In this document: in pieces, positions 1,839 to 43,717 of the stretch
Layout: each line of letters opens with the position of its first letter
Numbering within the stretch: position 1 is the stretch's first letter
Assembly (NCBI GenBank): GCA_016176335.1
Contig: JACOXI010000004.1
Location: forward strand, 146,303-210,302
Direction of reading: 5' to 3'
Length of the DNA: 64,000 nt
Origin: Candidatus Daviesbacteria bacterium
GTDB taxonomy: Bacteria; Patescibacteriota; Microgenomatia; Daviesbacterales; UBA10151
The notes under the pieces: generated by a model
What the model saw: only the letters and a program-made list of their open reading frames with translations
Told to the model about the DNA's origin: nothing
Databases searched by the model: none
Made by a program: the position numbers and the translations under genes

Positions 1839-2546
1839 TTAATACCCGGTAAAATTCTCGATGTTAATATTTTCCGGATTGACTCCGGCTTCAAGTAATG
1901 TTTTCTGGATAGCATCAACCATAGCCGGGGGACCCACTACGAAGTAAAGTGGATTTTTGAGGTTTTTTGTGTAATCTTTAATTAATTGCACATCTACTCT
2001 TCTATTCTCTCCGACCCAGGAAGTATCCTCTGTCATTGTCAGTATCAGCCTAAAATTTGGCAAGGTCCGGGCAAGCTCTTGAAGCTCTTTTACATAAGCA
2101 GCAGAGCTTTGATCGCGGTTGGAATATATTAGAGTTATCTGATATGGCAGATGTTCCTCTTTAATGTAGGAAAGCATACTGATAAAAGGAGTAATGCCAA
2201 TTCCTCCGGCAATGAAAACCAGCGGCCTGTTGTTCTCACTGGGCAAAATAAAACCCCCGGCAATTGGGCCGATTTCTACCAAGGAGTTATTCGGCAGCTC
2301 TTGTAGGGATTTTTTGAAACCAGAATCTCGGATTCTGGTGGCGATAGTGATAATGTGCTTTTGATTGGGAGAATTCACTATAGAAAAGTGCCTTTTATTA
2401 GATCTCTCATCCGGATATGGGGGGGTAACTAGTGTGATAAAGGCGTATTGTCCAGGTTTAAAAGTAAACTGTTCATCTGGAATTTCAAATGTAACTTGTA
2501 ATGTTGCCTTGGCAATCTCTTTTTTGTCTATTATTTTCCCTTGCAT
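1839..2546 (-). CDS. ferredoxin-NADP reductase-like FAD/NAD(P)-binding oxidoreductase
   Basis: RHFSI (RxYS-like FAD motif) and a GGIGITP NAD(P)-binding motif. 235 aa. Confidence 0.75.
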   Translation of the reverse strand: MQGKIIDKKEIAKATLQVTFEIPDEQFTFKPGQYAFITLVTPPYPDERSNKRHFSIVNSPNQKHIITIATRIRDSGFKKSLQELPNNSLVEIGPIAGGFILPSENNRPLVFIAGGIGITPFISMLSYIKEEHLPYQITLIYSNRDQSSAAYVKELQELARTLPNFRLILTMTEDTSWVGENRRVDVQLIKDYTKNLKNPLYFVVGPPAMVDAIQKTLLEAGVNPENINIENFTGY

Positions 2547-2590
2547 AAAATTATTATATACTATTACTGTGTAGGTGTACCCACAGAACC

Positions 2591-2649
2591 ATTGCGTGAT
2601 TATTTGCGCGATTATTGCGCGACCAGCCTCGACTAGACGTCGAGTCTAG
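2591..2649 (+). promoter_or_regulatory. three tandem 11-12 bp repeats (TTGCGCGATTA-like), a CTAGAC-N5-GTCTAG palindrome and a TATAAT -10 box upstream of Fic
   Basis: Repeats at 2591-2602, 2603-2614 and 2615-2624. Palindrome at 2633-2649. TATAAT at 2662-2667. Confidence 0.5.
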
Positions 2650-2674
2650 GCGGGTATATGGTATAATTAAAGGT

Positions 2675-3733
2675 ATGTTTGATCCTATTTACTCAATATC
2701 ATCTAAAACAATTTCCAATATGACCGAGATTGCGGAAATCAAAGCAATCGTGGAAAGATCCAAAGTACTACCTTTAAATGAGGCACAACTTCGGAGACAG
2801 GCAATTTTGCGGATGGCCCATACTTCTACTTCTATTGAAGGTAATAAACTGGCCCAATTTGAAGTGGGTAAGCTGATAGAAGGTAAAGCAGTACGTGCTC
2901 CCCAAAAAGATATTTTGGAGGTGGAAAGTTACTATAAAGCTTTAAAGATTTTGGAGCAAATGTCCAAATCAAGACATGATATTACCTTTGAGGACATACT
3001 GAACTTGCACAAAATGGTCATCCAAGGCCAAGTGGACAAAGAAAAAGTTGGTAAGTTCAGACCATCTGATGTGTATGTATTGGGTGATCTGGGCGACGGA
3101 CGCGAAATGTTAAGGTTTAAAGCTCCCCCTGCCACAGTAGTGCCTGATTTGATTTCCGATTTATTAAGCTGGTTGAAACAATCAAAAAAACAAGGCGTGC
3201 ACCCAATTATACGGGCAGGTATATTACATCTTGAGTTTGTCTCCATCCACCCCTTTACAGATGGAAATGGTAGGGTGGCGAGACTCTTGACACAACTCCT
3301 GCTTTACAGAGATGGTTGGGATTTTAGAAAAATTCTGGTTTTGGAGGATTACTATAATCGCGACCGATTGTCTTATTACAATGCGGAGCAAGAAGTTCAA
3401 GGTAAACACTACAAAAAAGGTGTTGATTTTACCTTCTGGCTGGAATATTTTACAACGGGCTTTTTGGTGGAGGCAAGAAAAGTATTGGAGCAAATCCAAT
3501 CTATTGGTTTTGGTAAGGTCAGCAAAAAATCTGATCAGATATTTTTGGATCCGGATGAGATTCAGATCATGGATTTTTTGGCAACCACCGGCAGAATTAC
3601 CTCTGATGATGCCCGAGACATTTTAAAAGTCGCCAAAAGAACCGCTCAATTAAAGCTGAAAAATCTGTCAGATAAAAGATTACTTAGGATAAACGGTAAA
3701 GGTCCCAGTACTTACTACACTATTGCGCGATAA
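2675..3733 (+). CDS. Fic family protein (Fic_N + Fic + C-terminal wHTH)
   Basis: HPFTDGNGRVARLL Fic motif. N-terminal TSTSIEGN inhibitory-helix-like motif. ATG at 2675 with an AAAGG SD. The track ORF from 2615 starts at TTG inside the repeat array. Confidence 0.85.
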   Translation: MFDPIYSISSKTISNMTEIAEIKAIVERSKVLPLNEAQLRRQAILRMAHTSTSIEGNKLAQFEVGKLIEGKAVRAPQKDILEVESYYKALKILEQMSKSRHDITFEDILNLHKMVIQGQVDKEKVGKFRPSDVYVLGDLGDGREMLRFKAPPATVVPDLISDLLSWLKQSKKQGVHPIIRAGILHLEFVSIHPFTDGNGRVARLLTQLLLYRDGWDFRKILVLEDYYNRDRLSYYNAEQEVQGKHYKKGVDFTFWLEYFTTGFLVEARKVLEQIQSIGFGKVSKKSDQIFLDPDEIQIMDFLATTGRITSDDARDILKVAKRTAQLKLKNLSDKRLLRINGKGPSTYYTIAR

Positions 3734-3759
3734 CTTGCGCGATTATTGCGCGATTGACA
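3722..3759 (+). promoter_or_regulatory. second array of three TTGCGCGAT(T/A) repeats overlapping the Fic stop codon, followed by a TTGACA -35-like box
   Basis: ATTGCGCGATAAC, TTGCGCGATTA and TTGCGCGATTG sit in tandem. TTGACA at 3754-3759, about 114 bp upstream of the RRM gene. Confidence 0.45.
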
Positions 3760-3872
3760 CCACTTGCTATTTATTCGCAATAATGAGATAATAGTTTCAG
3801 TGTGGAGAGTGTATTTAGTTTTTTACTGTAATTCACCTCGCATGAATTTACAAAAAAAGGAGGTGAATTTTT

Positions 3873-4136
3873 TTGAATAATAATAGAAGATTGTTCGTAG
3901 GCTCCTTGCCTTGGGGAGTAGATGATGCAGGACTTGCACAAATTTTTTCCCAAGCAGGAACGGTTGTCTCGGCTCAAGTTGTAAAGGACAGAGATACAGG
4001 CAGGTCAAGAGGTTTCGGATTTGTGGAAATGACAACTGATGAGGAAGCCAATAACGCTGTTGCAAATCTTAACGGAACCGATATTGAAGGCAGAAAAATT
4101 GTTGTTAATATCGCCCGTCCAAGAGAAGACCGTTAA
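3873..4136 (+). CDS. RRM-type RNA-binding protein
   Basis: RNP-2 LFVGSL and RNP-1 RGFGFVEM motifs. Strong SD AAGGAGGTG at 3855-3863. Confidence 0.9.
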   Translation: MNNNRRLFVGSLPWGVDDAGLAQIFSQAGTVVSAQVVKDRDTGRSRGFGFVEMTTDEEANNAVANLNGTDIEGRKIVVNIARPREDR

Positions 4137-4756
4137 CTCAATACTCTGTAACGTAAAAAAACTTCAGAATCCAATTTCTTAACTGAAAGTAATTTGAGGT
4201 TTTTGATTTTTTCAGGTGGAAGTAAAATACCTTCCACCAGTGTTTTGGTGGCGTTTTTGGCAGTGCCAAATATCTTTGGAGCAATGGTTATAAAAATTTC
4301 ATCCATTAGGCCCTCCTTTAAAAAGGATCCTAAAATAGTAGGGCCGCCTTCCACTAAAACATGATTAAAGCCTTTTTGAAAAAGGAGGGTTGTTAGTGAT
4401 TTGATATCATTGGATACGGTGTTTACTTTCAGAGCCTCAAACTTTCCCGCTTTTGAAGTCACAACAAAGTAGGGTAAATTCTTGTTTTTGCCTAATCTTT
4501 TTCTCAAAGCGCCAAACTCACTCCTTCCAAGACTTTCTAAAGTTCTTTCTCCAAACTCAAATGCTAAATTACTGCCATGGATTAAACAGTCTGCATATGC
4601 TCTAAGTTCAAGTAGGACCTTGTGATCTTTCAAGCTGCCGATTGGCCAATATCCATTTTTTAAAACACTGACCTTTCCATCCAGAGTTTGAACGAAATTG
4701 GTATAGAAAAAGGGGCGTTGCGAAATTTTGGGAAATTTAAGATTGGGATAGACCAT
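4133..4756 (-). CDS. dihydrofolate reductase-like protein (RibD C-terminal domain family)
   Basis: TLDGKV motif and a VEGGPTILGSF reductase-domain signature. Confidence 0.7.
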   Translation of the reverse strand: MVYPNLKFPKISQRPFFYTNFVQTLDGKVSVLKNGYWPIGSLKDHKVLLELRAYADCLIHGSNLAFEFGERTLESLGRSEFGALRKRLGKNKNLPYFVVTSKAGKFEALKVNTVSNDIKSLTTLLFQKGFNHVLVEGGPTILGSFLKEGLMDEIFITIAPKIFGTAKNATKTLVEGILLPPEKIKNLKLLSVKKLDSEVFLRYRVLS

Positions 4757-5416
4757 TTACGGGGTTGCCATGTCCAGCTTCGGCAGAATTTTTTTGGAGG
4801 CAAGATATTGTAAGATATGTTTGACCACCACGTATGATATGGCAATTCCGGTTGCAAAAAGTAATCTTTCAGAGATAACAACAGGGATCAAAGAATTCCA
4901 AACCGCAGGCGGTAAATTAAAAACCCAAATCCAGGCGGCCCCGCCTACGGAGTGGGCTGTAAAGGTGGCTCCCAAACTCTTCATCCATAAATTAGACCTG
5001 AATCTGTAAGCAATCAAAGGTATAAGCCAGAATAGAGTGTAATATGGGACATGCCTGCCATTTGGGTGAGCTATAAATGCAATGATAGCCAAAATAGGGA
5101 CTAGTAGTATCCACTTTCCCCTCCCCTTCTGAATTGTTGCAAAATAATAGACAGCAAAAAGAGTCGGGAATAATCTAATGATGGCACCTTGTGTCCAGGG
5201 CACTTCCTTTATTAGATTATTGGTAACCAAAACAGTAAAAACTGAAGCTATCCCAAAAATAGGTCCTAAGAAAACTCCGGCAATTGGGGCAAAAAAATCA
5301 AATAAAGTAAAAGAAACATTTGATCCGGCCAGCTTATTAAAAGGAACCTGCAAAGAGGCAAAACCTAAAATGGAGAATAAAACAAAAAAGACCAACGCTT
5401 TGTTGAATCTTGCCAT
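4757..5416 (-). CDS. small polytopic membrane protein, possibly an ECF-type substrate-capture (S) component
   Basis: 219 aa with about 6 TM helices. It is translationally coupled to the DHFR-like gene. The family assignment is tentative. Confidence 0.4.
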   Translation of the reverse strand: MARFNKALVFFVLFSILGFASLQVPFNKLAGSNVSFTLFDFFAPIAGVFLGPIFGIASVFTVLVTNNLIKEVPWTQGAIIRLFPTLFAVYYFATIQKGRGKWILLVPILAIIAFIAHPNGRHVPYYTLFWLIPLIAYRFRSNLWMKSLGATFTAHSVGGAAWIWVFNLPPAVWNSLIPVVISERLLFATGIAISYVVVKHILQYLASKKILPKLDMATP

Positions 5417-40736: not shown

Positions 40737-40809
40737 GCCCCCGTAGTATAACGGATAAAACATCTCGCTTCGGACGAGAAGACTGCAGGTTCGATTCCTG
40801 TCGGGGGTA
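40737..40809 (+). tRNA. tRNA-Arg (anticodon TCG)
   Basis: Acceptor GCCCCCG/CGGGGGT with G1-U72. Anticodon stem-loop TCTCG-CTTCGGA-CGAGA. T-arm GCAGG-TTCGATT-CCTGT. Confidence 0.75.
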
Positions 40810-40887
40810 CAAGCCACGGGGGTTCGTTATTCGAGCAAAGCGAGAATACGAGATTTATCCCTCCAGGGGCGTAACTAATTGGAGTTT

Positions 40888-41811
40888 TTAATCTTTCTTC
40901 GTTTCCTGCTGTTTCTGAACCCATTTTACGCTTCTTTGAAAAAGTTGTACAAGATTTTTAATATCCGGCCGCTTTCCCAACATAAAAATGCACCGCTTGA
41001 TTCCAAACCGTAACTGATCATTGTTTAACTCCGCCAACAACTCATTAAACGAAGAGCGCTCTCGAGGGTCTTTGGCCCAAGCTGCGCTGCTAAACATAAT
41101 CATCTGTAATACTGCATCAGTTTTTGGATGGCCGTCAAAAAGCTGCGGTATTCTTTCAGAGCTTACTGCCTCCCAACCTTCAGGAATATGAGGTAATAAC
41201 TTCTCTAACTCTGCTAAGGTCCAAAATCTGCCTTTCTCTAACTCCTTCTCGTCTATATGAGGCACACTAACCAAAGAAGGTTTTGCTCTGCTTTCACTTT
41301 GAACAATGATCTCTCTTGGATCTATTGGCACGGCATCACCACTATTGTCGTGAGAAGGTGACAAAGAGAGACCTGAGGAATTAGGTAGAAGGAGAGAAAA
41401 ATTTAGCTTTTCTCTTAAGGGATGCTTTCCCAGTGCCTCTGCTACCCTACCTATTCTCTCAATCCGTAGAGTGTTTTTTTTGCCGCCTCGTTCTTTAAAT
41501 TCCCAAGACAATACTGCAATAATCCTCACCCCATCTTGATCAAGAGAATATCTAATTCCGTTTCCTTTTCCCTTTGGATGTCTTACCAAATCTAGCAAAC
41601 CGTCTCTCCCGGCAGTATTAATAATATTAAAAAGTTGAAATCTACCCAGCCCAAAAGCACTAGAAAATAGCATCGGTACTCTACTTGTTTGTATGGGCCA
41701 TTCCAAAACTTCTTGTATTCTCGGTTCAACGGATTGTCCCAAAAACGCTTTAAGGTTCTGATTACTTATCCCCTCATAGCTATATGCCGACTCAATGCTT
41801 CTTGTTGCCAT
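40888..41811 (-). CDS. hypothetical protein
   Basis: 307-aa ORF between tRNA-Arg and the island boundary. No recognisable motif. Confidence 0.5.
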   Translation of the reverse strand: MATRSIESAYSYEGISNQNLKAFLGQSVEPRIQEVLEWPIQTSRVPMLFSSAFGLGRFQLFNIINTAGRDGLLDLVRHPKGKGNGIRYSLDQDGVRIIAVLSWEFKERGGKKNTLRIERIGRVAEALGKHPLREKLNFSLLLPNSSGLSLSPSHDNSGDAVPIDPREIIVQSESRAKPSLVSVPHIDEKELEKGRFWTLAELEKLLPHIPEGWEAVSSERIPQLFDGHPKTDAVLQMIMFSSAAWAKDPRERSSFNELLAELNNDQLRFGIKRCIFMLGKRPDIKNLVQLFQRSVKWVQKQQETKKD

Positions 41812-42043
41812 ATAATCAAAATTTTTGGCATTATACTACCTCCAGCCATTTTTTTCATCTCTAGTGAGCCGGCTAGTACCTTAAACCTGCTTCGCCCGCT
41901 CAGCGAGGCGAGCAGACTGCGGGAATTCTCCAAATTATTCCTTCATGACGGTCTAAACTCCGAATTTGCCTACCTTTTTCTTTAGAAAAAGGCAAGCTCT
42001 GCTTATACATTTGGCCTAAAAAATGCATAGTAAAGTACAACAG

Positions 42044-43102
42044 TCATCTCTCCTTTAAAACATAATACGTGGCTTTACCTTTACCTTTTCTATCAATTAG
42101 ACCTAAATCTATTAATTTCTTAAAATCCAATGCTCGAGTGGCTTTTGCCCGTTCAATTAGTTTTGCATAATCACGATCAGCAATAAATCCTTTCTCTTTT
42201 ATAAACCTAAGTATTTTCAAGTGATGGGGTTGTAACTTAGTTTCTGGGCTTATTCCAACTTCCGGAAGTAGTTTTTGGACTCTTAAAAGTTCATCAATTA
42301 TTCCTTCTGTAAAATATTCCAGCCATGAGGTGAAATCAGTTTTATCTACCAATTCATAATAATTGCCAAACTCTCCTACAGTCTGAAAATATTTAGTAAC
42401 ATTTTTGTTGTAGTAATTCTCGAAGCTAAACAAGTTAAAAGTGTTCAGTCCCATTTCAGCAAGCAATACTTTTGTAGTAAGACGGGTTGTTCTTCCGTTT
42501 CCATCCATAAAAGGATGAATAATTACCATTTGTTTGTGGAATATACCCGCTAAAATTAAAGGATCAATTTTATTTCTATTGTCATTTATAAATTCTACTA
42601 GGTCTTCTATAAGTGTCTTTATATCTTTTGCATCAGGCGGTAAGTAAATAACTTTTCTAGTCCTTGGATCATTTACAACTACTGGTTGCTCCATCAATTT
42701 TCCAGATTCAAACTTAGGCAATAGTCCAACAGTCACTTGCTTTTGAATTTTTAACATCAGCTCAAGAGATAATCTTACTTTTGCCTTTTCAAGTTTTTCA
42801 TTTAAATTCTGGAGTGCCTGATTGTAATTTAAAACCTCCCTTTCACTATCTCTTAATACGCTAGTATCAAACTTGTTTATATGTGCAGGCTTTGTTTTGA
42901 GAATTTTTTTAACTTCTGTTAAAGGAAGGGGATTGCCTTCGATACTGGTTGAAGCATAAGTTGACACTGCCCTTGCTGTTTTTTCAAGTTCTACTAACAC
43001 AACGTGGGGAAATCGTCTATTATTGAGTTCATTTACTAAAGTATTAATTCTTTTAATCTTTGCCAGGAGACGATCCGTAATTGTATAGCGGGGGTTAAGC
43101 AT
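42044..43102 (-). CDS. Fic family protein (paralog of 2675-3733, same length)
   Basis: HPFMDGNGRTTRLTTKVLL Fic motif. N-terminal STSIEGN. C-terminal wHTH-like tail. Confidence 0.85.
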   Translation of the reverse strand: MLNPRYTITDRLLAKIKRINTLVNELNNRRFPHVVLVELEKTARAVSTYASTSIEGNPLPLTEVKKILKTKPAHINKFDTSVLRDSEREVLNYNQALQNLNEKLEKAKVRLSLELMLKIQKQVTVGLLPKFESGKLMEQPVVVNDPRTRKVIYLPPDAKDIKTLIEDLVEFINDNRNKIDPLILAGIFHKQMVIIHPFMDGNGRTTRLTTKVLLAEMGLNTFNLFSFENYYNKNVTKYFQTVGEFGNYYELVDKTDFTSWLEYFTEGIIDELLRVQKLLPEVGISPETKLQPHHLKILRFIKEKGFIADRDYAKLIERAKATRALDFKKLIDLGLIDRKGKGKATYYVLKER

Positions 43103-43142
43103 ATAGTCTAATTATAAGCGGAGCTTGAAATACTCCATGGTC

Positions 43143-43168
43143 GTATTATAGACGATTAGTAGACGATT
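43143..43168 (-). promoter_or_regulatory. two direct TAGACGATT repeats (11-bp period) abutting a TATAAT box upstream of the second Fic gene
   Basis: Repeats at 43149-43157 and 43160-43168. TATAAT on the minus strand at 43145-43150. Confidence 0.4.
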
Positions 43169-43717
43169 CTCAATGGGTAAAATTTCGATCCCTGTGGCCA
43201 AGTTGAATCATCAGATAAGAGGACCAATTCCTGAGGCTGGTAGCCCTAGAGAGGTCATACAGATGGATACTGTGGATTTTGGGGCTGTGTTGCCTTTACA
43301 GGAGTAGATATCTTCACCAAAGAAGTTAATGTTAAGCTGTATCCATCACTCACCGCTAAAGATGGGTTAGATTTCTTAAGTTCCTCTTTTGATTCAAGGT
43401 TCCATCACACTAATCTTTTGCAAACTGATGGAGGCCCTGAATTTAAGGCTGAATTTAAAGCTAATGTATTCAAATATGCAGATAGATTCAGAGTAGCCAG
43501 GCCATATAAAAAGAATGAGCAAAGCTACATTGAGAGTTTTAACAGATCACTCAGAAAAGAGTGTTTAGGCTGGAGTAAGTATAGGACTAATCAGTTGTCA
43601 AGCCTAACTAGAGAACTAACAGATTATTTGATGTATTATCATACTAAGAGGCCTCATATGAGTTTAGGTATGAAAACTCCTGAGAGGTTTTTAAAAGAAC
43701 TAGTGTCGGATATTTAA
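43165..43717 (+). pseudogene. remnant of a DDE (rve integrase-core) transposase, IS481/IS3-like, frameshifted and N-terminally truncated
   Basis: Fragments in two frames: ...REVIQMDTVDFG, then GVDIFTKEV...LQTDGGPEF...RPH.SLG.KTP, which is the typical C-terminal rve segment. Confidence 0.7.

Follow-up and report, generated by a model that had tools for sequence, protein, structure and literature searches.

Direct-repeat arrays that bracket a Fic gene of Candidatus Daviesbacteria are probable operators for the Fic proteins' own winged helices

Introduction

Enzymes that join a Fic domain to a winged helix-turn-helix (wHTH), such as SoFic, CccR and CbFic2, are increasingly seen as toxin, defence protein and transcription factor combined. 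The C-terminal helix-turn-helix (HTH) of CccR from Yersinia pseudotuberculosis binds and represses the protein's own promoter, and its footprint consists of two inverted 10-bp boxes 26 bp apart (PMC9755527). This inverted repeat is the one Fic-wHTH operator mapped so far. For SoFic of Shewanella oneidensis, the bound DNA is the 100-bp region upstream of the protein's own gene (bioRxiv 10.64898/2026.07.09.737422). In CbFic2 of Coxiella burnetii (8CIL), binding of the wHTH to DNA leads to dimerisation and to a switch from AMPylase to deAMPylase (PMC10628234). Here we describe two Fic-wHTH genes, fic1 and fic2, on a 64-kb stretch of DNA (the window) from Candidatus Daviesbacteria, a member of the Microgenomates within the candidate phyla radiation (CPR). 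Each gene is preceded by a tandem array of short direct repeats, and a second array overlaps the stop codon of fic1. The repeats are real and conserved cis elements, and we propose that they are probably operators, each read by the wHTH of the Fic protein beside it.

The proteins of the window (Fic1 and Fic2) resemble the three characterised systems in architecture and differ from them in their DNA sites. Like Fic1, CccR (7XUX) joins a Fic domain to an HTH at the C terminus in one polypeptide and is a full-length structural match, at an identity of ~22%. However, CccR binds its inverted boxes as a back-to-back dimer, whereas the putative Fic1 and Fic2 sites are three direct repeats with a period of 11-12 bp, and the 3' end of fic1 carries a second, identical array. 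CccR, moreover, is secreted as an effector of a type VI secretion system, whereas fic1 lies in conserved synteny on the chromosome of a CPR bacterium. SoFic (3EQX) shares the domain architecture of both window proteins, and its PADLOC profile covers them end to end, but it has no defined operator sequence, in contrast to the defined direct-repeat units of the window. The anti-phage family of SoFic typically lies in defence islands or mobile contexts. The place of fic2 between a tRNA gene and a broken integrase would fit such a setting, and the conserved housekeeping synteny of fic1 argues against an island gene. CbFic2 has the same Fic-wHTH fold as Fic1; its binding to DNA is not tied to a defined operator, and it is a secreted effector that acts on histone H3. 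Since CbFic2 switches its activity on DNA, operator DNA could likewise set the enzymatic state of Fic1 and Fic2.

Parallels to the geometry of the arrays also lie outside the Fic family. The wHTH proteins of the PhoB/OmpR family bind head to tail on pho boxes, in which 7 conserved bp and 4 A/T-rich bp recur with an 11-bp period and replace the -35 element. The Fic arrays are alike in that 11-bp direct repeats lie next to a -10 element, but this is an analogy and not membership of the family: the Fic proteins have no receiver domain, homology goes no further than the wHTH fold, the units number three and not two or four, and the sign of regulation is likely the opposite. In lambda OL/OR, lac O1/O2 and gal OE/OI, as at fic1, two clusters of sites ~1 kb apart bracket the regulator's own gene, and lambda OL/OR also has three sites per cluster. 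Those sites are palindromic, whereas the fic1 sites are direct repeats whose second cluster lies over the stop codon, and at fic1 we infer the looping. The literature on Fic operators and on Fic proteins in CPR bacteria held nothing beyond CccR, SoFic and CbFic2, and no direct-repeat or 3' operators of Fic genes were found in it. Self-regulating Fic-wHTH proteins are known from CccR and SoFic; the putative triple direct-repeat operator and the 3' array that brackets the gene are new. None of these characterised systems has a counterpart to such a putative 3' operator.

Repeat arrays at the two Fic genes

An earlier reading of the window from its letters alone (the original prediction) had named two paralogous Fic genes of 352 aa, and the two proteins indeed share 31% identity and both belong to the Pfam Fic family. 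The same reading had described three tandem units with a period of 11-12 bp before fic1 and three more over its stop codon. Both arrays were found, each with a core spacing of 12 and then 11 bp, and both are detected by Tandem Repeats Finder (coordinates in Table 1). The 3' array consists of three exact copies of TTGCGCGAT, the first of which provides the last two codons of fic1 (Ala-Arg), with its final T as the first base of the TAA stop codon (3731-3733). Exact copies of TTGCGCGAT occur four times in the window, all within the fic1 arrays, where 0.12 were expected, and none of 100 shuffles contained four or more. Chains of three cores at 10-13 bp spacing had one further occurrence, a chance hit, in the 128 kb of window strands, and no other arrays were found elsewhere in the 64-kb window.

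A repeat search lengthened the similarity between the 5' and 3' regions of fic1 to 46 nt at 80% identity. The extra 14 nt agree at 8 of 14 positions and no ortholog shows such a relic upstream, so this extension is probably due to chance, and a 46-nt duplication that included the 3' coding end of fic1 was rejected.

The fic2 promoter, TTGAGA-17-TATAAT, matches the sigma-70 consensus at 11 of 12 positions. Two exact units of AATCGTCTA had been described as abutting its TATAAT box. The two exact units stand, but they lie inside the spacer between -35 and -10, and a third, degenerate unit follows them. A fourth, inverted copy of AATCGTCTA in the fic2 coding sequence (43011-43019) was dismissed as a coincidence, as orthologs use other codons for the NxRRF motif at this place.

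Conservation of the arrays and co-variation with the winged helix

A genome scan with one genome per species gave 51 loci, 46 of Fic1 type and five of Fic2 type, the latter with 56-63% identity to Fic2. Together with the window, 42 of the 46 Fic1-type loci (L001-L042) make up a Daviesbacteria-type set of 43 loci; an NCBI entry named Candidatus Daviesbacteria has 100% identity to the Fic1 protein. Arrays were scored by a strict criterion, namely three cores of the form [TA][GTA]CG[CT] that lie 10-13 bp apart. The original prediction had proposed a comparison with the upstream regions of related Fic genes, and this comparison was in its favour: the 5' array is present in 36 and the 3' array in 31 of the 43 loci, the spacing is 12,11 in every one of these arrays on both sides, and several further loci have arrays with one degenerate core. 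Applied to 570 kb of locus strands, the criterion was matched four times beyond the Fic flanks, and two of these matches are genuine arrays that have been displaced. When the spacer between fic1 and the downstream RRM gene was aligned without bias by MAFFT, the alignment recovered the three units as conserved blocks, while the spacer sequence varies. The 5' and 3' arrays of the same locus are 77% alike, compared with 68% for arrays of different loci (permutation p = 5e-5).

The gene order is conserved in ~35 loci and runs large membrane protein, in some loci an FNR-like protein, Fic1, RRM, in some loci RibD_C, and a membrane protein. Within the Daviesbacteria loci, Fic1 is better conserved (70-80% identity) than its upstream neighbour (53-65%), and this, together with the synteny, argues for vertical inheritance of fic1 rather than for a cassette. 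At fic2-type genes the register of the window is kept in L049, L053 and L115, with the -35 joined to unit 1 and the -10 at the junction of units 2 and 3; fic2-type triples are also present in L047, L048, L050 and L051.

The arrays extend to more distant relatives. A metagenome scan with the query TTGCGYGATTATTGCGYGA listed at least 120 contigs, and the first 80 of those listed were sorted by context. In ~45 of these 80, a Fic1-like gene with 40-83% identity has the array directly on its 5' side, and ~10 are high-GC chance matches. In other CPR lineages the spacing is 11,11 or 12,11, and TTGCGYGAT triples precede Fic genes of only 40-50% identity. The Fic gene is the only constant partner of the array across Daviesbacteria, Parcubacteria, Moranbacteria and the metagenome lineages.

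The units change together with the protein. In the Fic-linked contigs, little of the wHTH has escaped divergence apart from (K/R/Q)RTAQ, where the recognition helix starts, and 'KRTAQ' co-occurs with TTGCGYGAT units throughout loci of 40-83% identity. Fic2-type genes, with 56-79% identity to Fic2, have RAKATRALDF-like helices and triples of AATCGTCTA, ATCGACTA or AATCGCCTA. A Daviesbacteria clade with the helix TKR[AS]AQ has the unit TTTCGCGAT, and the intermediate locus L018, with the helix SKRAAQ, has mixed units. A further clade combines the helix AKRTAQ with the wing GSTTA in place of GKGPS; here the TTGCGC core is kept and the 3' half of the unit is changed (TTGCGCnnGA) in both arrays. 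This suggests that each paralog has its own type of site, as had been predicted, with TTGCGYGAT going with the 'KRTAQ' helix of Fic1 and AATCGTCTA with the Fic2-type helix. With this locus and ~100 relatives, the operator of a Fic-wHTH protein appears to be predictable from comparison, its specificity tracking the recognition helix and the wing. The result is a candidate specificity code with two putatively orthogonal pairs in one genome.

Several loci have additional arrays or arrays out of place. In L029, four units of TTGCGCGAT stand immediately upstream of a three-unit TTTCGCGAT array (2895-2981), L014 has a second full array past an inserted gene (4756-4788), and in L039 (5723-5753) and L040 (1559-1601) arrays lie by the endonuclease III gene (nth) after insertion of a GIY-YIG gene. 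In L115 (2680-2830) and L124 (159-260), an intact TTGCGYGAT array and -10 precede a fic1 gene that is internally deleted, so that its first codons are fused to its last ~15 (...GPSTYYVIS) and the operator is spared; in L115 the remnant is directly followed by a fic2-type gene that has an array too. Short GC-rich elements of the types CCCTGAGCGAGCGAAGCGAGTCGAATGGG and GGTGAGCGTAGTCGAACC lie immediately beside arrays or between the fic1 stop codon and the arrays in L013, L017, L007, L042 and L016, and look like a small dispersed repeat of Daviesbacteria.

Two kinds of array were seen in other settings. The four-unit arrays of the rumen contigs L061, L064, L078, L080, L082, L092, L098, L108, L111, L113 and L131 have 11-bp units of ATTGGGTGATT / ATTGCGTGATT after a conserved 'AAGGCTTGCAxCG', and lie by ybeY-like or thrS-like genes on contigs without a Fic gene. 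A like architecture exists outside CPR bacteria, on a plasmid of Stanieria sp. NIES-3757 (AP017376; L173), where a Fic-wHTH gene at locus 380 (26% identity to Fic1) is preceded by four to five tandem 10-bp TTTAATTGGy repeats that run into a TAAAAT -10, which the ATG follows after 7 nt. In a sample of three plasmid-borne SoFic-type genes, tandem repeats at the -10 were present in Stanieria and absent in Klebsiella and Citrobacter.

Table 1. Positions of the arrays, promoters, genes and protein domains within the 64-kb window
Feature	Position	Strand	Details
fic1 5' array	2592-2623	+	three direct units, cores 12 then 11 bp apart
Units of the fic1 5' array	2592-2602, 2604-2614, 2615-2623	+	TTGCGTGATTA, TTGCGCGATTA, TTGCGCGAC
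fic1 3' array	3723-3754	+	three exact TTGCGCGAT at 3723, 3735 and 3746; spacing 12,11
fic2 promoter/operator	43138-43173	-	-35 TTGAGA 43173-43168, -10 TATAAT 43150-43145
Exact units at fic2	43168-43160, 43157-43149	-	AATCGTCTA; on the forward strand TAGACGATT
Third, degenerate unit at fic2	43146-43138	-	ATACGACCA; orthologs also have a third unit
fic1 coding sequence	2675-3733	+	352 aa, class II Fic AMP-transferase (predicted), C-terminal winged helix
fic2 coding sequence	42044-43102	-	352 aa, SoFic-type Fic-wHTH paralog, recognition helix RAKATRALDFKKL
wHTH domain of Fic1	residues 293-350, nt 3551-3724	+	order of helices (H) and strands (E) in the model H-E-H-H-E-E
Predicted recognition helix of Fic1	residues 321-333, nt 3635-3673	+	KRTAQLKLKNLSD, starts 'KRTAQ'
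Wing of Fic1	residues 341-346		GKGPST, AlphaFold2 model
fic1 extended -10	2657-2667	+	TATGGTATAAT; TATAAT 2662-2667; ATG 7 nt downstream
Double-palindrome insert	2623-2654		GC-rich, 31 nt; CTCGAC/GTCGAG overlapping CTAGAC/GTCTAG
Palindrome 1	2633-2638 and 2644-2649		CTAGAC, N5, GTCTAG; exact
Palindrome 2	2628-2633 and 2639-2644		CTCGAC / GTCGAG; overlaps palindrome 1
FNR-like oxidoreductase gene	1839-2558	-	divergent; -10 TATAAT 2558-2553, 6 nt before ATG
RRM promoter	3764-3792	+	conserved; TTGCTA 3764-3769, 17 nt, GATAAT 3787-3792, with TG
RRM 5' untranslated region hairpin	3830-3869	+	AATTCACCTC / GAGGTGAATT, pairs with the Shine-Dalgarno sequence
RRM gene	3873-4136	+	87 aa, TTG start; downstream neighbour in ~35 loci

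Proposed self-regulation by the Fic proteins

Because the arrays are conserved in relatives and change with the DNA-binding domain of the Fic protein, they are most likely sites of self-regulation. The original prediction that the units are operators for the C-terminal wHTH of each Fic protein is likewise favoured by array conservation, by co-variation and by the precedent of CccR and SoFic. The explanation that best joins the observations, and that we consider likely, is that one unit is one wHTH site, that the 5' arrays repress the Fic genes and that the 3' array is an auxiliary operator.

Each 11-bp unit would be bound by the wHTH of one Fic protein. The recognition helix of Fic1, which starts with 'KRTAQ', may read the 6-bp core TTGCGC in the major groove, and the wing (GKGPS) may read the GAT(T/A)A that follows the core. 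Three such units head to tail would form the operator of the Fic promoter. At fic2, the units cover the -35/-10 spacer and the start of transcription, so bound protein would exclude RNA polymerase, and this position suggests negative autoregulation. In most fic1 orthologs, the array lies at -19 to -51 against the extended -10, for which repression is the simplest reading; in the window, the 5' array lies at about -50 to -82, after a 31-nt palindromic insert. The arrays thus probably act in repression, judging from their position and from the precedent of CccR.

The 3' array is most likely a second operator for Fic1, because its units and spacing match those of the 5' array and its changes run parallel to them. 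Fic dimers whose wHTHs sit on flexible linkers may bridge the two arrays and close a loop of ~1.1 kb, which would tighten repression, and the 3' array may have a side effect or second function on the RRM promoter, which begins 10 nt downstream. Candidate roles of the 3' array are those of an auxiliary looping operator, a transcriptional roadblock and a site of RRM co-regulation. A more elaborate version seems unlikely to us. Three Fic1 dimers would each place one wHTH on either array, the loop would silence the divergent leaderless promoters and gate the RRM promoter, and the DNA, by analogy with CbFic2, would keep the enzyme dimeric and either deAMPylating or inactive. If so, a protein that leaves the operator would bring about induction of the gene and activation of the toxin in one step.

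Several observations weigh against the main explanation. Three direct repeats are a misfit for the two-fold dimers of CccR, SoFic and CbFic2. Since the fic1 array lies where class II activators such as PhoB bind, activation is possible. The third core usually starts 15-16 nt from the -10 hexamer, but distances of 8, 22-23, 36 and 47-48 nt also occur, and in the window the fic1 array no longer overlaps the core promoter. The co-variation comprises few clades and perhaps 3-4 independent changes. L084 combines the helix TKRSAQ with a G-type 5' array and a T-type 3' array. In L118 and L142, the wing and the 5' units are altered, but the GAT units at the 3' end are canonical. Among the first 80 metagenome contigs, 11 rumen contigs have four-unit arrays by non-Fic genes. 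The 3' array is limited to Daviesbacteria-type fic1 loci, and relatives at 40-50% identity are without one, which counts against the loop in particular, and the loop itself is something that we infer.

Alternative explanations

The alternative that survives best concerns the 3' array, which might chiefly be an operator of the RRM promoter. Fic protein bound at about -48 to -80 would activate RRM in the manner of a class I activator, or dampen it; the level of the toxin would be coupled to RRM, and the overlap with the stop codon would be a by-product of genome compaction. We consider this possible but clearly less probable than an operator that serves fic1 itself. Measured from the third core, the RRM -10 is 41-45 nt away in 16 of 20 adjacent orthologous loci and 41 nt away in the window, outlying values of 31 and 54 nt differ by about one helical turn in either direction, and the spacing is kept in five loci with small insertions between the Fic stop codon and the array (L011, L016, L017, L020 and L042). 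In the adjacent loci, 8-38 nt separate the end of the array from the conserved RRM -35. Furthermore, the array went with the RRM promoter in L030, the promoter of an inserted gene lies 41 nt from the array in L009, and the adjacency of fic1 and RRM is conserved. However, the spacer length may be merely inherited, and adjacency says little because the whole neighbourhood is syntenic. Where insertions of 0.7-1.5 kb separate the two genes (nine loci), the array stays at the Fic stop codon in eight, and the RRM promoter is intact without it. In L007, L018, L029 and L034, a convergent gene has its 3' end towards the array, which is thus left with no promoter to act on; the convergent genes of L007, L018 and L034 are 27-35% identical, so this arrangement is old. 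Since the 3' array remains at the Fic stop codon despite insertions and convergent genes, it is tied to fic1 first, and it may also act on the RRM promoter in loci where array and promoter adjoin. The coupling of fic1 and RRM through the array, as originally predicted, is possible; it agrees with the 41-45 nt spacing in adjacent loci but less well with the loci in which the array stays with fic1 when other genes intervene.

It is unlikely that Fic1 acts as a positive autoregulator, with an array that replaces the -35 of the fic1 promoter as pho boxes do for PhoB. By analogy this would fit the lack of a -35 match in the fic1 promoter and the geometry in most loci, where the array ends 5 nt from the extended -10 as a pho box would. 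On the other hand, extended -10 promoters need no -35, the fic2-type units extend over spacer, -10 and start site, and CccR is a repressor. Positive feedback on a growth-arresting enzyme would be hazardous, and the position of the array varies by non-integral turns (8, 16 and 23 nt).

Less probable still, the arrays may be read by a separate CPR regulator or may be promoter architecture (UP-like elements or phased A/T tracts), leaving the wHTH to serve, for example, in target recruitment. The rumen arrays by ybeY-like and thrS-like genes, on contigs without Fic, and the displaced arrays by nth in L039 and L040 would be explained in this way. Self-regulation by the Fic proteins accounts better for the Fic gene as the sole constant partner of the arrays across lineages, for the switch of unit type with wHTH type inside one genome (fic1 versus fic2) and for the lack of other arrays in the 64-kb window, and the homologs CccR and SoFic bind their own promoters.

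Very improbable, lastly, is that the arrays are recombination scars or sites and that fic1 is a cassette, the mobile unit of the original prediction, or a tandem-duplication remnant whose arrays are alike by gene conversion: the 46-nt direct repeat, the greater likeness of same-locus arrays and the internal deletions behind intact arrays in L115 and L124 would suit it, but gene order is conserved in ~35 genomes with fic1 better conserved than its upstream neighbour, there is no integrase or transposase within 8 kb of fic1, the 3' array has a weak fold that is not the attC-like structure looked for (z = -2.0, ensemble frequency 0.005), the exact spacing is kept over long divergence, relatives without a 3' array keep the 5' array at the promoter, and no empty site, with the flanking genes and an array but no fic1, was found among the at least 120 metagenome contigs listed.

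Fic1 and Fic2 proteins

Both proteins score well above the cut-off of 24 bits for Pfam Fic (PF02661), with 74.3 bits for Fic1 and 57.8 bits for Fic2. The catalytic motif HxFx(D/E)GNGRxxR is present as H192-PFTDGNGRVAR-203 in Fic1 and as HPFMDGNGRTTR in Fic2, the form common to both being HPFxDGNGRxxR. An alignment of 22 sequences shows no variation at H192, F194, D196, G197, N198, G199, R200 and R203. N-terminal to the core, both proteins have the class II inhibitory motif (S/T)xxxE(G/N) (S51-TSIEG-56 in Fic1, STSIEGN in Fic2), and STSIEG is invariant in the same alignment. As putative members of this class, Fic1 and Fic2 would AMPylate or deAMPylate a protein target, which in relatives is EF-Tu, FtsZ or histone H3.

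The PADLOC profile for SoFic aligns over residues 10-348 of Fic1 (E = 4e-54) and 11-350 of Fic2 (E = 3e-42), whereas the scores against the NCBIfam SoFic equivalog (NF046030) are 52.9 and 68.1 bits, below its cut-off of 550. By these profiles, Fic1 and Fic2 are of the SoFic class but belong to another orthologous group than SoFic proper. An AlphaFold2 model of Fic1 (predicted local distance difference test score 80.8) has a low-confidence linker at residues 278-287 before the wHTH, which is canonical and comprises helices at 293-305, 310-317 and 321-333 and a beta hairpin at 337-350. With the whole model as a query, Foldseek returned 4RGL, 8CIL (CbFic2), 7CB8, 7XUX (CccR) and 3EQX (SoFic) over 350-380 aligned columns, and phmmer matched CccR to residues 8-337 of Fic1.

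Fic1 does not have the features of a type II toxin-antitoxin module of the Phd/Doc kind. The gene is monocistronic behind a divergent promoter region and encodes its own DNA-binding domain and its own inhibitory helix. A Phd/Doc-like toxin that needs a separate small antitoxin was rejected for Fic1, whose DNA-binding domain is part of the same protein.

Fic1 promoter region

The extended -10 of fic1 (TRTGnTATAAT) is kept in nearly all orthologs, without a match to a -35. Since the ATG lies 6-8 nt past the -10 in 21 of 38 loci, the fic1 mRNA is probably leaderless. A strict helical phasing of the 5' array against the -10 was rejected, as the classes of distance are not all whole turns apart.

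The 5' array lies between the promoter of fic1 and that of the divergent FNR-like gene. The divergent gene encodes an FNR-like protein in the window and a large membrane protein in other loci, and in many orthologs its extended -10, and even its start codon, adjoins unit 1 of the array. As the divergent gene is built like fic1, the 5' array stands between two back-to-back promoters. Both genes are without a Shine-Dalgarno sequence and have the ATG 6-8 nt past the extended -10 (2657-2677 and 2544-2558), so that both mRNAs appear to be leaderless, unlike that of the RRM gene. Extended -10 promoters, leaderless mRNAs and a putative bidirectional operator offer a rare view of cis-regulation in uncultivated CPR bacteria.

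The perfect CTAGAC-N5-GTCTAG palindrome and the TATAAT box of the original prediction were both exact, and the former is accompanied by a second, overlapping palindrome. The resulting insert puts the array of the window 47 nt, rather than the usual 15-16 nt, upstream of the -10 and is limited to the window, L013, L018 and the metagenome contig L070, which form the 47-48 nt class. As DNA the insert folds with z = -3.1, and L013 has a compensatory double change in it. A dispersed miniature inverted-repeat transposable element was rejected, because the insert is present as a single copy in the window and CTAGAC-N5-GTCTAG recurs only in L018 among 171 loci. The insert could be the site of a second regulator. 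Its cores, CGACTA and CGTCTA-like, resemble the fic2 units, but their spacing is 13 and not 11. L003 and L025 have different hairpin inserts of ~20 nt at the same position.

The RRM gene and the fic2 islet

The RRM protein matches Pfam RRM_1 (E = 2e-23) and scores 100.9 bits against the NCBIfam Rbp_regulator cut-off of 100. A TTGACA box (3754-3759) had been placed ahead of this gene; as an RRM -35 it is not conserved, and the orthologs keep TTGCTA (3764-3769) instead. No intrinsic terminator was found between fic1 and the RRM promoter. A search of 2400-4300, a region that includes the RRM leader, against Rfam gave no match. The 5' untranslated region of RRM is ~80 nt long (region 3764-3872), has conserved blocks in L001-L034 (GTGAGTAGAGTGTA...) and seems to be a cis-regulatory leader of CPR rbp genes not described before. 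Its hairpin buries the Shine-Dalgarno sequence and belongs to the context of the operator, not to the operator itself.

The fic2 gene lies in an islet of ~3 kb (40737-43717), which begins with a gene for tRNA-Arg(TCG) (40737-40810), ends with a broken rve integrase (43173-43307 and 43418-43717; rve_3, E = 1e-14) and also holds an unannotatable open reading frame of 307 aa (40888-41811). From this context, horizontal acquisition is probable for fic2, unlike for the syntenic fic1. At or after the ends of three fic2-type genes with 58-79% identity to Fic2, two to three TTGCGYGAT units lie in inverted orientation (L053 3828-3846, L072 5211-5229 and L093 9447-9465). They may reflect cross-talk between the two types of Fic protein or be a scar of rearrangement, and in L053 they run directly into an antisense TATAAT.

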